Assembly (NCBI GenBank): GCA_000146465.1
Contig: CP001951.1
Length of the DNA stretch: 64,000 nt
Direction: 5' to 3' (one strand)
This document shows, piece by piece, positions 2,415 through 44,005 of this stretch. The position numbers and the translations under genes are program-made. How positions within the stretch are numbered: the first letter of the stretch is position 1; each line of letters begins with the position of its first letter. The notes beneath the pieces were generated by a model, which was given only the letters and a program-made list of their open reading frames with translations, did not search any database and was not told the origin of the DNA.

Positions 2415-3062
2415 TCAAAAAGGGGTCTGATGGATACTCCCAAACATACCATCTTCGTGAATCTCTCTTAGGAATTTCATGATCTTGAGGAGGGAATCGT
2501 CATCCTTTTCTCCTGTATATGGAGGAATATGAATCCCATTGTGGGGCTGGAACTCATATGAATGGGGGCTGTCGTCAACCAGAATCACCTCATTCAAGGG
2601 CTTTCCAAGCTTACACAGATCCTTAACATATTTTCCGTTAACAAGTGTACATGAGTCTCTGTATAGAGAATAGGCTATTCTCTTATTCGCATCGATAATG
2701 CCGATGACTTTCTCGGCATATTCCTTCTTCGCTGCTGTGAAGATAATCACCTCGTATATAGCCCCAACAATGCTTATAAACTCGACAGCATGGGGCCTGA
2801 CCTTCACATAGATCTGTAGATTCTTTTTCCCAGGGACTTCCAGACAAAAGTCATAAAGTCTGGGCTTCTTAAAAGTTGAGTACACCAGAGTATTGTCGAG
2901 ATCTAGAACCACTGTTCTCCCCAAGTCGTTTTTCTGAGGGGAAACAAGTTGCATAAACTTCTTTTCTTTGGATTCTCGTCTTGCTTTCTCACTGCCTACC
3001 ATGGACATCTCTTTCCTGTTGCAACGACAAAAATTTCTTAGAGTCCTAAGAAGCCAGGACAT
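2415..3062 (-). CDS. NIF/FCP1-homology HAD phosphatase (CTD small phosphatase / Nem1-Dullard-like)
   Basis: VVLDLDNTLVYS (DxDx(T/V) HAD motif I) followed by a typical NIF-domain layout. ATG confirmed at 3062. Confidence 0.65.
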   Translation of the reverse strand: MSWLLRTLRNFCRCNRKEMSMVGSEKARRESKEKKFMQLVSPQKNDLGRTVVLDLDNTLVYSTFKKPRLYDFCLEVPGKKNLQIYVKVRPHAVEFISIVGAIYEVIIFTAAKKEYAEKVIGIIDANKRIAYSLYRDSCTLVNGKYVKDLCKLGKPLNEVILVDDSPHSYEFQPHNGIHIPPYTGEKDDDSLLKIMKFLREIHEDGMFGSIHQTPF

Positions 3063-3104
3063 TGATGTGGCGAGGGGTATAAGTCGCTTTCCAATTCCTC
3101 CCCG

Positions 3105-4013
3105 ATGACTGAAAACCCTCTCGATGTAAAGTACCAGTCCATGCTTGAAAATATCCGGGACTCGCTCCTTCCTTCAAGAGAAGATGTTCTAGTATTGGTG
3201 GAAGAAGTTCGCAAGATATTGGAGTCTGAGCCAAACGTCCTGTATATAGACACACCAGTCAATGTTGTTGGAGATGTCCATGGCCAGTTTTACGATGTAC
3301 TAAATATGATGAGCCTAATGGAAGATCCATCCGAAAAACCATATCTGTTCCTTGGAGACTATGTTGATAGAGGATACAATTCCGTAGATCTTATCCTTCT
3401 CTTGTTTGTATACAAAAGGCTTTATAGAAATACCTTACATCTTTTGAGGGGGAACCATGAAACACGGATGCTTTCCTCGGTTTACGGATTCAAGGAAGAA
3501 TGTGTGCGCAGATACGATCTTGTGGTGTACTGGAGAATCTGTGAAGCCTTCCAATACCTTCCCATTGCTGCAGTGGTCTTGGGAAAATACTTCTGTGTTC
3601 ATGGCGGGCTGGTTCCTGGAATGTCTCTGGACTTTCTAATGAAACATGACAGGATAGGGGAGATTACAGAGATAAACGATATTCTCTGGAGCGATCCAGA
3701 TGAAACCCTTGGGTTTCGGAAAAGCCAAAGAGGGGCAGGATATTTATTTGGAGAGGATGTTCTAAGAAACTTCCTTGATGAACATGGTCTGTTCCATTTT
3801 GTTCGGTCTCACCAACTGGTTAATGATGGTTATAAAGTATATTTTGATGGGAAGTTGTACACTGTGTGGGGAGCCCCGAACTACTGTTATTCTTCTGGTA
3901 ACATTGCCTGCGTTATGGCTATTGATGAGAACGGCCATGATTTTAGATTATTTGATAGATGCGAAGAACAATTTAAAGAAATCCCGGTGAGATGTGATTT
4001 TTTTGGAAGTTAA
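3105..4013 (+). CDS. Ser/Thr protein phosphatase catalytic subunit, PPP family (PP2A/PP4/PP6 subfamily)
   Basis: GDVHGQF, GDYVDRG, LRGNHE, HGG, SAPNYC-like motifs; 302 aa. Confidence 0.85.
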   Translation: MTENPLDVKYQSMLENIRDSLLPSREDVLVLVEEVRKILESEPNVLYIDTPVNVVGDVHGQFYDVLNMMSLMEDPSEKPYLFLGDYVDRGYNSVDLILLLFVYKRLYRNTLHLLRGNHETRMLSSVYGFKEECVRRYDLVVYWRICEAFQYLPIAAVVLGKYFCVHGGLVPGMSLDFLMKHDRIGEITEINDILWSDPDETLGFRKSQRGAGYLFGEDVLRNFLDEHGLFHFVRSHQLVNDGYKVYFDGKLYTVWGAPNYCYSSGNIACVMAIDENGHDFRLFDRCEEQFKEIPVRCDFFGS

Positions 4014-4578: not shown

Positions 4579-4893
4579 TTAATAAACCAATGCTTCTCCC
4601 TTTGTTTTCTTCTCTCCGCCAAATATCACGTGCTTGGCCCTCTTCAGAGGCTTTTGGTGGGAAAACTTGCACTTGGTACACTCCAACTTCAAAACAAGCT
4701 TCTTGGTGACTTTGGCCTTTCTTCGGAGAATCGGCTTTGTCTGACCACCATAACCCCGTTGCTTCCTAGCATATCTCCTATTTCCCTGGGCTCTAGGATT
4801 GTCTTTGGACTTCTTGGCCTGAGAAACCTTGTGTGGAGAGTAGCCGCTACACTTCTTACAAAATGTATTTCTTGTCTTCGGAATATTCACCAT
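4579..4893 (-). CDS. 60S ribosomal protein eL42 (L44e/L36a)
   Basis: [15 protein letters not shown]...[21 protein letters not shown]...LEC..C near full-length match to eL42; intronless; ATG confirmed. Confidence 0.9.
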
Positions 4894-32201: not shown

Positions 32202-32770
32202 AGAGGGTAAACACAAATTTTTATTAAATGGTCTCTAGATCTCTCTAATCATGGCGGGTAAGTCTCTTTTTCCTCTGTTCCAACTCCTTCAGATATTCAT
32301 CCACAGCCCTTATTTCATCGATTATTGCTTTTCTTCTTTTCTCAGCTCTTCTCAAAAGAATATTGACAATCTCTAATATTCTCTTAATCTTCTTGTTATT
32401 GTCATACATCTCGCAGGGATTCTTCAAAACGGTTTCTTCTCCTAAGATCTCACTTCATAGTAGGAGGGATTGTTAGCGCTCAACCAGGGGCTGGGAAATA
32501 GATAATCATTCAAGACTTCAAACCACTCCGGCCCGTCACTTTCCAAAACTTCATGCATCTAAACTAAATAATAAATTAATTATTCCATAGCAATGAATCG
32601 GCCTGCTTCATCAATTCATAGTATTTGACAGATCGAGCGATGAGTATTCAGATTTATCCATAAACATGATATGATAAATTCATCTTATGATATATGGGAG
32701 ATTCCTTTTATGGAAATGACATTTATGGAGAGGATAGGGCTTCTAATTGTGTCTATAGTTGCTTTAAGGT

Positions 32771-33262
32771 ATGGGATATAATTTGGCAATGACCCCAGCT
32801 TTGTTCATGTCAAGGTTGCCCAATCTTGCCTCCTCTCGTATGAATGAAATAAGAAAAGTCTACATAGAAGCCAACAATAGAATTGTTGAGGAAATAGATG
32901 CAGTAACAGAAAAGTTCTCAAAAGAAGTTGAGACCATTCCTAACATCTCGGCCAGCGTAAGGATATATCTTGAAGAAAAAATCAGATCTATACGTGAGTT
33001 TGTTGTCGATAGTATTGGATTTTCAATAGGCGAGTTTAGAGCCTTATACAATCCCGATGGAAATGAAAGCATAAAAACGAGAAGATTTCCAAAGTTCATA
33101 ACCGAGGCACTAGAAAGGAGCTTTGAGATTGACCAATATCCGTCCGAAGCCGAAAAGTCAAGACTTGCAAAAATATGTAAACTTTCGACAAAGCAAATAA
33201 ACAACTGGTTTACGAACAAAAGAAATAGAAGCAAAAGCCATGATGGGGGTAGGCAGTACTAG
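32771..33262 (+). CDS. homeobox protein, typical (non-TALE) 60-aa homeodomain
   Basis: RRFPKFITEALERSFEIDQYPSEAEKSRLAKICKLSTKQINNWFTNKRNR. Helix1-loop spacing matches a classical homeodomain with no 3-aa insertion. ATG confirmed. Confidence 0.8.
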   Translation: MGYNLAMTPALFMSRLPNLASSRMNEIRKVYIEANNRIVEEIDAVTEKFSKEVETIPNISASVRIYLEEKIRSIREFVVDSIGFSIGEFRALYNPDGNESIKTRRFPKFITEALERSFEIDQYPSEAEKSRLAKICKLSTKQINNWFTNKRNRSKSHDGGRQY

Positions 33263-33798
33263 GCTGTGAATGGGAGGCGCATATGATTTTAATATAATCC
33301 ATGTATGTATTTCTTTGAAGTAAAGTAAGAGACTAAATTAGTATAACTCTTCTTAAAGCCCCAATGGCAAGTAATATAAGTTATTCTTGATACGAAGATC
33401 AATCTCACCTCGATTCTCTATTTTAGGAAAGGTGAAATTTTCGTGGTAGGAAGATCTTTGACGACCTAAATTTCGTAGGAGAAAGATACGACAGAATCGA
33501 CCGAGTGTGAATGAGATAACATAGTATTTTAATTGTTAATTTAAACAATTAGTTTTCGATGTAATATACAAAACCACCGATGTGTAGAGGAAATTGGTTC
33601 CAAGACAGAACACTAGAAAAGGATGTTACAAGACAACATGAGACTGTAGACTTCTATGCGCGCTTGGATAGGCCAGATTCTATTTATTTCTGTCATATTG
33701 ACACAATTGAAATATTAAATTATAAAACCTCTATCAAACAAGATTAATTAAGCTATCGCGAGACAATTAGATAAAACAGAGTGAATGGAGCGGTAGCC

Positions 33799-34368
33799 AT
33801 GAACATGATAATGGATATATTGAATCAAGTTATGTATGCTGAAGAATGCTATTTCTCCAACAGAGTTAGCAGAGAGAAATTAATGGAAGACATAAGACGT
33901 CTTCGGAGTGAATACGAGATTGGAATAATGAGAGACTCTGGAAGAGAAGGAATAAAATTCAAAATGGCATTGCTATTTATTCTTAGAAGAGTGAGACACA
34001 AGATTATACTTGAAGACAGACTCATGGAGATGATTGATTCCGAGGTTGCTTTCGTTAGAGGATGTGTAAGCAGTATCATCTCTGAGCCCTTCGGAGTCAA
34101 GCCTGTAGAAACCATGAGGCCTACACAACAAGAAGCAGAGACCAGGTGTGCCAAACCAAGGACAAGGGCCAACTTCCCTATGGACACTTCACAGCTTCTG
34201 AGATCTTGGCTTAAAGAGAATATGGATAACCCATATCCATCGGATGCCGAAAAGGCATATCTTTGCCAGAAGACTGGCCTTGGTCCTGCACAGATTAATA
34301 ATTGGTTTATAAATGCTAGGAGAAGAATCTTACCTTTCATGAAAGGAAAGCGTGCGAGTTTCAAATAA
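33799..34368 (+). CDS. homeobox protein, TALE class
   Basis: TRANFPMDTSQLLRSWLKENMDNPYPSDAEKAYLCQKTGLGPAQINNWFINARRR has the PYP three-residue insertion and the WFINARRR helix 3. Track start 33781 is GTG; first ATG is 33799. Confidence 0.85.
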   Translation: MNMIMDILNQVMYAEECYFSNRVSREKLMEDIRRLRSEYEIGIMRDSGREGIKFKMALLFILRRVRHKIILEDRLMEMIDSEVAFVRGCVSSIISEPFGVKPVETMRPTQQEAETRCAKPRTRANFPMDTSQLLRSWLKENMDNPYPSDAEKAYLCQKTGLGPAQINNWFINARRRILPFMKGKRASFK

Positions 34369-34689
34369 ATTTATATGGGAGTTTATTGGTTAATTATCTT
34401 ATCCATCGGTAGCCACACATTTAGAACTCCAAATAAAGGCTCGAAAGATTCTGAACAACTGTATTAGAGTCTGGTTCGGATGTGTCTAGAAGCCAACTAC
34501 TGCCCACCCCGAGATAACTAGTAAAAATGGAAAATCCATATGAAATAAAATTATGGGTAGCTATTAATTAAAATAAGTTTAAATTTCATAGATATAAAAC
34601 GACCTTATTGCTTTTAATGGATTATTGTGAGCATTTATTTCTTCTATAAGATCATCATGCAAAAAGTTTGAAAAAGAAGGCTGCTCATG

Positions 34690-42380: not shown

Positions 42381-42688
42381 CTCAAGGATTCATATTGAAG
42401 AATTTTTCTATCCATGATATGGATCTCTCGGGAATGAATAGACTATTTGAAGTTCTCGATAAAATCAAAAATAAAGTAGAAAAGGAGGAAAGGCCACCCA
42501 ACCCAAAGGAAGCGTTGGAAAGAGAGCTTCACAAGTTATATCTATGCATATCCTTAGAAATATGCAAGCAAAAGCTTCAAGGATCTGTTGGTAAGGAAGT
42601 TCTTGACAAGGTGAAGGAAATTAAACAATATTTCAAGCACATAGAGAACATCCGGGGTAAAGATCGAAATGATCCTGTACAAAAATAA
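42371..42688 (+). CDS. hypothetical protein (105 aa; may start at internal Met MDLSGMNRL)
   Basis: ATG-initiated ORF, K/E-rich and helical, with no recognised family. Confidence 0.3.
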   Translation: MPPSQGFILKNFSIHDMDLSGMNRLFEVLDKIKNKVEKEERPPNPKEALERELHKLYLCISLEICKQKLQGSVGKEVLDKVKEIKQYFKHIENIRGKDRNDPVQK

Positions 42689-42696
42689 GATGATAC

Positions 42697-43122
42697 TTAT
42701 TTATTCTTTTTCTCTGCCTTCTTCATTGCTCTCTTGATAGTACCAAAGATCTTATAGCGCTTCTTCCTTTCGTCCTTTCTTACCCTTCTAGGTGTTATTT
42801 GAAGCTCCTTTCCAGTGATCTTTGCTACAACATGCTTCTTCTCAACTGAAGAAAGAACTTCAGCATTTGAATAAATCTTTGCTCTGAGTGTGGTTCTGTG
42901 TGTTCCATACCTATTCTTAAGATTTCCAACTACAATGTTCTTCTTGCTTGTTTGATAGAGCTCAGATATCTTGTCTGTTATTTCCTCTCTGCTGGGAATA
43001 GGCATTCCAGGATGGTATGCAACCACATCCAATTCTTTCCTGGAAAGCAGTTTGTTCTCCTTAAGGCCAGAAATCTCAAGTTCCAAACTCTATAAGTTAG
43101 CTTCAAATACCTCACTTACCAT
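42697..43122 (-). CDS. 40S ribosomal protein eS24, two exons: join(43122..43120, 43089..42697)
   Basis: The track ORF (43086) starts on TTG. On the minus strand an ATG at 43122 is followed directly by GTAAGT...GCTAAC..TATAG, a 30-nt intron at 43119..43090. The spliced product begins MSLELEISGLKENKLLSRKELDVVAYHPG... and is eS24 throughout; unspliced, the ORF stops after 10 codons. Confidence 0.8.
43090..43119 (-). other. spliceosomal micro-intron (30 nt) of the eS24 gene
   Basis: GTAAGT donor immediately after the ATG, CTAAC branch-like motif, and TATAG acceptor. Confidence 0.7.
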
Positions 43123-43210
43123 TTCGTGAGGGATAAAATTTTCGGAAATATCTGTCTTTCAGGCCTCTCGACCTTCGAAAATATTTTCCTTAACAGAAAG
43201 GCCCTTTGAA

Positions 43211-43426
43211 ATGGTAAGTGGAACTTCGGAGTCCTGGAAATAACTTTAGGCAACTATTACAATCAACAAAGCTGGAAAGGTTAGGAATCAAACACCAAAG
43301 GATCCTGTTGTCGAAAAGGAAAGGAAGAAGTGCGGGCGCTGCAGACAACGCTTGAAGTTTGAGAAGAGAAACGAGATGGGATATTTTGATGTGATGGGAA
43401 AGATGAAGCTGAATCCTCAGTCATGA
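43211..43426 (+). CDS. 40S ribosomal protein eS30, two exons: join(43211..43213, 43250..43426)
   Basis: Absent from the ORF track. ATG at 43211 is followed by GTAAGT...AATAACTTTAG (36-nt intron, 43214..43249). The spliced 59-aa product is [59 protein letters not shown], with the eS30 AGKVRxQTPK and basic tail. Unspliced, the ORF stops after 10 codons. Confidence 0.8.
43214..43249 (+). other. spliceosomal micro-intron (36 nt) of the eS30 gene
   Basis: GTAAGT donor immediately after the ATG, ATAAC branch-like motif, TTTAG acceptor; exon 2 stays in frame through a TGA at 43424-43426. Confidence 0.7.
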
Positions 43427-43594
43427 AAGATAAAATAAAATCTTATTAGCCTCTATGGCCGAATTTTCCGTTATAAAACATATCTAATGGATTACCCTTG
43501 CTATTTTCGAAGCTTTCTTGGTTTTTACCAAGGATGTCAAAGAGTAGCAGATAGAAAGCTGCAGGCACCAAGGGTGCTAGGCACACATTTTAAT

Positions 43595-44005
43595 TTAGAC
43601 TTTACTATTAGTTTGACACTCCTCCTGTGTCAAATCTGTGTTTTTCTTCTCGTCATTCTCCATACTATTTTTTTCCGGCTCTTCGGCCTCAGCTCCTACT
43701 GCAACAAGTATAACGGTGTCTCCCCTGATAAAGACATTTCCAAGCTTTCTAGAAAACTCGCTACCCTGCCTTTTCTTTCTTCCCTTATTTCTACCTCGCG
43801 CAGTCCCAAACTCCCTAGCTTCTCTTACCAATAAGTTATAATGCCGATCATATGCTACCACTTTTCCTGTGACCTTTCTGTTGTTTCGTAAAGAAATCAA
43901 CACAGGAATCATCTTAACCATGGCCCGGCGAACAAGTGAAAGAGGCCCTTTCATTTCCATCGACTCCTTCTCCCCAGGATTATCTGGATTGTTCGGAAGA
44001 AACAT
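43595..44005 (-). CDS. small nuclear ribonucleoprotein Sm D2
   Basis: Sm fold ISLRNNRKVTGKVVAYDRHYNLLV...GNVFIRGDTVILV with the SmD2-type basic insertion GRKKRQGS, plus an acidic C-terminal tail. Confidence 0.75.
   Translation of the reverse strand: MFLPNNPDNPGEKESMEMKGPLSLVRRAMVKMIPVLISLRNNRKVTGKVVAYDRHYNLLVREAREFGTARGRNKGRKKRQGSEFSRKLGNVFIRGDTVILVAVGAEAEEPEKNSMENDEKKNTDLTQEECQTNSKV

Follow-up and report, generated by a model that had tools for sequence, protein, structure and literature searches.

The 64,000-nucleotide (nt) window analysed here, from contig CP001951.1 of assembly GCA_000146465.1, carries at 42697..43426 the genes of two small-subunit ribosomal proteins (RPs), eS24 on the minus strand and eS30 on the plus strand. 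They stand head to head, and each is modelled with a short intron directly behind its initiator ATG. The window was read at 42500..43600 and coordinates were re-derived by script. Sequence comparison identifies the locus with high confidence as the Encephalitozoon intestinalis orthologue of the E. cuniculi pair ECU10_1570 (S24) / ECU10_1575 (S30), and we hold the spliced gene models to be very probably correct.

Identity of the two genes and their models

An earlier sequence-only reading of this DNA had named the genes eS24 and eS30 and proposed comparing their spliced products with PF01282 and PF04758; both products pass the curated cut-offs of these Pfam families. Joining ATG to exon 2 and translating gives for eS24 a protein of 131 amino acids (aa) beginning MSLELEISGLKENKLL, which matches PF01282 (Ribosomal_S24e) over residues 9-95 with 87 bits (cut-off 24.5, E = 9e-25), and for eS30 one of 59 aa (MATITI...), which matches PF04758 (Ribosomal_S30) over residues 4-58 of 59 with 62.7 bits (cut-off 27, E = 3.6e-17). 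An exact-sequence look-up found the spliced products identical to ADM12478.1 (S24) and ADM12479.1 (S30), adjacent accessions of E. intestinalis ATCC 50506, so that the earlier identification holds on both counts. Residues 1-131 of eS24 align to residues 1-131 of chain D4 of PDB entry 7QEP (E. cuniculi eS24, E = 1.2e-66), whose deposited sequence begins MSLELEI, as the spliced model does; the match to the eS24 of 6RM3 has E = 9e-36. For eS30 the closest solved relatives are the eS30 chains of the V. necatrix (6RM3, the best match), S. lophii and P. locustae ribosomes. The gene spans annotated in a further assembly, GCA_051312795.1, map to 42697..43122 (131 aa) and 43211..43426 (59 aa), and these protein lengths require that 30 and 36 nt be removed.

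The predicted spliced junctions are ATG|AGTTTGGAAC for eS24 (minus strand) and ATG|GCAACTATTAC for eS30 (plus strand), whereas the unspliced frames each run for 10 codons and then stop (MVSEVFEANL* in eS24). Table 1 lists the features. The ATG and intron positions of the sequence-only reading proved exact to the base, and its 3-nt first exons, its stops within 10 codons and its distance of 88 bp between the two ATGs are borne out by translation and by the length of the spacer.

Table 1. Features of the eS24/eS30 locus (positions in the window; offsets are from the ATG of the gene named)
Feature	Position	Strand	Sequence and basis
eS24 exon 2, including stop codon 42697..42699	42697..43089	-	Pfam, 7QEP alignment, identity with ADM12478.1, dN/dS
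eS24 intron, 30 nt	43090..43119	-	GTAAGTGAGGTATTTGAAGCTAACTTATAG; 5' GTAAGT 43119..43114; branch-like CTAAC 43100..43096; 3' TATAG ending 43090
eS24 exon 1, initiator ATG only	43120..43122	-	Sequence read; directly downstream of CCC-like motif; same layout in the orthologues of five species
Divergent intergenic spacer, 88 nt	43123..43210	.	Two conserved promoter-proximal blocks around a variable middle (~43155..43175), five-species alignment
eS24 core-promoter module (putative)	43130..43151	-	ATATTTCC (-29..-22), AAAATTTT (-20..-13), CCC (-10..-8)
Perfect 12-nt palindrome, AAATTT-like (TATA-like) box of eS30 (putative)	43177..43188	+	GAAAATATTTTC; -34..-23 from the eS30 ATG
eS30 CCC-like motif	43202..43204	+	-9..-7, inside the conserved ATG-adjoining block CCCTTTGAA; matches the CCC-like signal of PMC2803860
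eS30 exon 1, initiator ATG only	43211..43213	+	Sequence read and orthologues
eS30 intron, 36 nt	43214..43249	+	GTAAGTGGAACTTCGGAGTCCTGGAAATAACTTTAG; 5' GTAAGT 43214..43219; branch-like ATAAC 43240..43244; 3' TTTAG ending 43249
eS30 exon 2, including stop codon 43424..43426	43250..43426	+	Pfam, identity with ADM12479.1, dN/dS

Conservation of the introns

The locus was compared with its orthologues in E. hellem (L003-L006), E. romaleae (L007), Ordospora colligata (L008, L009) and E. cuniculi (L010). By alignment and re-derivation, the eS24 and eS30 introns lie at identical positions in all five species. Their starts, GTA[AG]GTG, are invariant and their ends consist of [ACT]TAAC followed by T(N)TAG; all five eS30 introns end TAACTTTAG. 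Between these ends the sequences have diverged, and the introns measure 29/30 nt in eS24 and 35/36/45 nt in eS30. Length changes between species are not multiples of three, and a retained intron leads to a stop codon in every species. The codons after the acceptor, SLELE in eS24 and ATITINKAG in eS30, vary only synonymously (CTT/CTG/TTA and GAA/GAG in SLELE; AAA/AAG, GCT/GCA and GGA/GGT in eS30). Over the whole proteins, pairwise ratios of non-synonymous to synonymous substitution rates (dN/dS) are 0.04-0.09 for eS24 and 0.03-0.06 for eS30, at dS of 0.5-1.7 (0.5-1.0 for eS30). The E. intestinalis eS30 intron, at 36 nt, is 9 nt shorter than the 45 nt of E. hellem, E. cuniculi and O. colligata.

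Both introns have the marks of the Encephalitozoon short introns: GT-AG ends, a GTAAGT 5' site and TAAC near the 3' AG (CTAAC-TTATAG in eS24, ATAAC-TTTAG in eS30). Stop codons on retention and freely evolving interiors show the interrupting sequences to be non-coding. These introns are reportedly the subject of Katinka 2001 and of Lee 2010 (Mol Biol Evol, 'Constrained intron structures in a microsporidian'). In the RP genes of Encephalitozoon the intron usually begins immediately behind the start codon (PMC6349667), in agreement with the view of the sequence-only reading that a one-codon first exon is a known architecture of this genus. In E. cuniculi, RNA sequencing (RNA-seq) showed all annotated introns to be spliced, with lengths of 22-76 nt and strict motifs at the 5' site and the branch; the extent of splicing was low, 81% of junctions staying below 50% (PMC3629993). 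The 30 and 36 nt found here, directly after an RP-gene initiator ATG, fall in the published range.

The arrangement is rare by chance. The pattern ATG + GTA[AG]GT...TAA[CT]...AG occurs twice in the window, at eS24 and eS30 only, against a mean of 0.12 in 300 mononucleotide shuffles, or 0.01 where an open frame of at least 50 codons was also required; this strict scan of the whole window thus gave no further introns of the eS24/eS30 type. Three other ATG-proximal GTAAGT/GTAGGT sites were rejected, as they are without branch and acceptor signals and lie in ordinary open reading frames (ORFs). If the ATG is dropped from the pattern, GTA[AG]GT..TAA[CT]..YAG is still found twice in the window (both real introns) against about eight times in mononucleotide shuffles, a crude control; there are hints here that cryptic splice signals are depleted in the window. 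A scan of metagenome contigs for the spliced eS30 junction, as cDNA-like evidence, returned no match. At gathering thresholds Rfam gave no hit anywhere in the window, which leaves the locus and its surroundings without a known RNA family.

Under the model that we propose, each pre-mRNA would carry a U2-type spliceosomal intron of 30 or 36 nt right behind the ATG, which the reduced microsporidian spliceosome would remove by way of GTAAGT, the TAAC branch motif and the first AG downstream. Splicing would join ATG to AGT TTG GAA in eS24 (MSLELE...) and to GCA ACT ATT in eS30 (MATITI...); transcripts left unspliced would stop after 10 codons and yield no protein. Since short introns in E. cuniculi are inefficiently spliced on average, splicing may also limit output.

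Alternatives to the spliced models

Three points weigh against the models as drawn: the eS30 branch motif is ATAAC in E. intestinalis and CTAAC in the four other species; the evidence for splicing at exactly these junctions in E. intestinalis comes from orthology and conservation; and one E. cuniculi assembly, GCA_027571585.1, places the S24 acceptor 15 nt further downstream. Carried over to E. intestinalis, this last choice (..CTTGAG|ATT) would make a 45-nt intron and a 126-aa protein, M-ISGLKEN, like the 126-aa S24 (M-IADLRDN...) annotated in that assembly, and an AG is present there in all species, as the end of a GAG codon. The intervening 15 nt, however, are those that encode SLELE in five species with synonymous differences only, intronless orthologues have NLELE (L016) and CELE (V. 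necatrix) in this place, the E. cuniculi sequence of 7QEP includes these residues, and it is the proximal AG that comes first behind the branch motif. We consider the downstream acceptor very unlikely.

Still more improbable is that there is no splicing at all, with eS24 starting from a TTG at 43086 and the eS30 frame a decaying remnant. Plain ORF scanning gives this picture, with eS24 as 129 aa from a TTG start and eS30 missing, and the view could draw on a report that eS30 is absent from E. cuniculi ribosomes (PMC8807834). Against it, the eS30 frame is intact and evolves under the strong constraint given above, its promoter and splice signals are conserved in five species, and ATG-GTA[AG]GT stands directly behind a conserved CCC-containing block in all of them. 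The E. cuniculi gene is moreover abundantly transcribed (see below), and the annotated introns of that species are confirmed as spliced by RNA-seq (PMC3629993). The spliced models are retained for both genes, with the proximal acceptor in eS24.

The reported loss of eS30

The cryo-electron microscopy structure of the E. cuniculi spore ribosome (2022, PDB 7QEP) was described as showing 'complete loss of protein eS30', with the gene apparently absent (PMC8807834), and our PDB search, which found no E. cuniculi eS30 chain, is consistent with that description; the ribosome models of V. necatrix, S. lophii and P. locustae do include eS30. E. cuniculi nevertheless has an annotated 59-aa S30, CAD25878.1 / NP_586274.1 (L010 2689..2913), and the gene is intact and strongly constrained in all five species. 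In published E. cuniculi data, in a table that covers ECU10_1575 (S30) and not S24 (ECU10_1570), the S30 gene reaches 1220/692/669 fragments per kilobase per million (FPKM) at 24/48/72 h, about ten-fold above its neighbours, and its fall after 24 h matches the trend described for RP genes in PMC3629993.

On balance we favour the reading that Encephalitozoon has not lost eS30, that the 59-aa product is a selected and highly transcribed small-subunit protein, and that its absence from 7QEP is not gene loss. That absence would then reflect a lack of the protein limited to certain life stages, loose binding and thereby loss in purification, or density that was left unmodelled. The claim that the genome holds no eS30 homologue probably stems from the near-invisibility of the gene to ORF-based searches. 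Our literature search found no paper discussing the discrepancy between gene and structure. An intact, constrained and highly transcribed eS30 gene bears on claims of how far the eukaryotic ribosome can be reduced.

Putative promoter elements in the spacer

In front of each gene an A(n)T(n) box is followed by a CCC motif close to the ATG, the layout of microsporidian RP promoters, whose triplet may be CCC or GGG. The eS24 module is fully conserved among Encephalitozoon species, bar one or two bases in E. cuniculi, and its orthologue is the signal aaaaatttatccctcgcgaa published for E. cuniculi ECU10_1570. On the eS30 side the upstream box reads GAAAATATTTTCC at -34..-22, with the AAAATATTTT variant at -33..-24. 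It includes the perfect 12-nt palindrome that the sequence-only reading had pointed out at 43177..43188; we find it there as GAAAATATTTTC, identical in four Encephalitozoon species. The supplements of PMC2803860 give the E. cuniculi S30 (ECU10_1575) signal as aaaatattttccttgaaagaaaggccctttgaa and list S24 as 'AAAAATTTATCCCTCGCGAA (intron)' (ECU10_1570) and S30 as 'AAAATATTTTCCTTGAAAGAAAGGCCCTTTGAA (intron)' (ECU10_1575); these two strings are the orthologues of window positions 43123..43142 (minus strand) and 43178..43210.

The same layout is seen in the window at large. In the 80 nt ahead of 50 genes, hexamers made of A and T alone are most frequent at -30..-21 relative to the ATG, in about half of the genes, and CCC triplets, present in roughly three quarters, are most frequent at -10..-1. 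This fits the general layout of a TATA-like box and a CCC motif with very short 5' untranslated regions (UTRs) (PMC2803860). The strict AAATTT-like motif is found in two of the three RP genes against 3 of the 47 other genes (Fisher p = 0.023); in the third, eL42 (4579..4893), a looser form is found, AAAAAATT, and the same holds for the E. cuniculi orthologue of eL42.

The sequence-only reading had further proposed that the two genes share one bidirectional promoter, and a single promoter with the palindrome GAAAATATTTTC as its common element is the chief rival here. The divergent 88-bp spacer is real, the palindrome is perfectly symmetric as well as conserved, and PMC2803860 raises the possibility of a palindromic AAATTT signal acting on both of two divergent units across a spacer of 35 bp (S16/L13). 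Against sharing, the palindrome falls in the -30..-21 peak of A/T boxes in the 50 genes for eS30 only; from the eS24 ATG it lies at -55..-66, outside the peak, and eS24 has its own AAAATTTT and ATATTTCC at -13..-29 together with CCC; the published E. cuniculi tables, too, give separate signals for S24 and S30 (PMC2803860). In relatives in which the pair is split, an unpaired, intronless eS30 (L015) retains AAAAATATTTTC..CCCC upstream, and eS24 genes without eS30 as neighbour (L016, L017) retain AAAAATTTTATCCCT, so the two modules are separable, each remaining with its own gene. Sharing of the promoter is hence unlikely, and the spacer would consist of two back-to-back core promoters and not of one shared element.

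A repeated GGAAATA motif, also claimed for the promoter, does occur at 43144 and 43236; the heptamer is common, with 29 copies in the window against 14 expected, and the copy at 43236, inside the eS30 intron, is not conserved in other species. That second copy is a chance match, and GGAAATA was rejected as a regulatory repeat. The copy in the spacer makes better sense on the eS24 strand, where it is the reverse complement of ATATTTCC (-29..-22) and mirrors ATATTTTCC of eS30 (-30..-22).

With two core promoters, each gene would use its own A/T box about 20-30 nt and its own CCC-like motif 7-10 nt upstream of the ATG. The pre-mRNAs would start a few bases before the ATG, by analogy with E. cuniculi, in which rapid amplification of cDNA ends gave 5' UTRs of <7 nt. 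For E. intestinalis we infer both the function of the promoter elements and the transcription starts.

Gene calling and public annotation

Both genes are mis-called by ORF finding, as the sequence-only reading had noticed. The ORF scan has eS24 solely as a 129-aa frame opened by TTG (42697..43086), and all that it shows of eS30 is a fragment of 24 aa (43352..43426). Likewise, a Logan contig covering this locus, whose genes were called in prokaryote style, has the 129-aa eS24 and no eS30. Public eS24 records also vary. The E. romaleae record (L007 2483..2851) is a 122-aa intronless call from the internal MRDNKLL, one O. colligata assembly has eS24 as the 123-aa 'hypothetical protein OCOL_000063' (P0012), and the 126-aa E. 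cuniculi call in GCA_027571585.1 discussed above (L010 3001..3425) has its acceptor misplaced by 15 nt in the downstream direction. In the DNA of E. romaleae, E. cuniculi and O. colligata OC4 (L009), the model of ATG plus a 29-30-nt intron gives an eS24 of 131-132 aa. The locus is useful as an annotation test case, in which prokaryote-style ORF calling drops eS30 and three public eS24 records are truncated or mis-spliced.

Relatives and evolution of the pair

The head-to-head pair with the same neighbours is found in E. hellem, E. romaleae, E. cuniculi and O. colligata and, among the genomes examined, only in Encephalitozoon and Ordospora. It is absent in the relatives from runs DRR353006 and SRR21023573. 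In the former, eS30 (L015 3001..3183) is intronless and reads MASMIPINKAGKV, and on the same contig eS24 (L017, ~2856..3285) keeps a 34-nt intron after the ATG, with branch motif CTAAT; in the latter, eS24 (L016 3001..3396) is intronless and begins MNLELEVES. Both intronless genes match the corresponding spliced product residue for residue, which is the sharpest test of the introns in this comparison. An intronless eS30 beside an intron-bearing eS24 in one relative, and an intronless eS24 in another, imply that the introns were lost independently among close relatives. In V. necatrix, eS24 is intronless and unlinked to eS30. V. necatrix was considered as an outgroup and set aside: it indicates that the pairing is not general to microsporidia, but does not inform the direction of change.

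Other observations in the window

On the far side of eS24, the stop of a plus-strand gene for an 89-aa hypothetical protein ends at 42688, leaving a gap of 8 nt to the eS24 stop codon. With so small a gap between convergent stops (42686..42699), the 3' ends of the two transcripts must overlap or abut. Elsewhere, the region 32202..34689 holds tandem TALE-type homeobox genes (Pfam Homeobox_KN) at 32807..33262 and 33799..34368; their flanking spacers of about 605, 536 and 321 nt are the longest in the window, where spacers are typically 40-150 nt.

Comparison with known systems

The genes, the intron class and the palindrome-containing promoter signal are already in GenBank and in the literature. 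As a finding the locus changes little, and only the discrepancy between the eS30 gene and the ribosome structure might surprise a specialist. Compared with the short, 5'-biased RP introns of Encephalitozoon (Grisdale 2013, PMC3629993; Whelan 2019, PMC6349667), the two introns agree in GT-AG ends, GTAAGT, TAAC near the 3' AG, length and a stop if retained, and we found no difference. The promoters resemble the microsporidian AAATTT-like and CCC-like signals (Peyretaillade 2009, PMC2803860) in both genes, with CCC 7-10 nt before the ATG; they differ in that the eS30 box is the AAAATATTTT variant and stands 13 nt from CCC, where most RP genes have 1-3 nt.

The E. cuniculi pair ECU10_1570/ECU10_1575 and the pairs of E. 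hellem, E. romaleae and O. colligata have the same gene order, post-ATG introns and promoter blocks, and common neighbours, LSM, cytidylyltransferase and Mnd1 on one side and UQ_con, DUF5099 and ABC on the other. Their spacers are 73-92 bp long and differ in the middle, and the proteins are 80-95% identical within Encephalitozoon and ~61-79% identical to those of O. colligata; the E. intestinalis pair shows nothing different in kind. In yeast, too, some RP genes are interrupted immediately behind the start codon, such as Saccharomyces cerevisiae RPS24A/B with a one-codon first exon. The yeast introns are hundreds of nucleotides long and efficiently spliced. As a lead, if the intron position is homologous with that of yeast RPS24A/B, the eS24 intron would be ancient.

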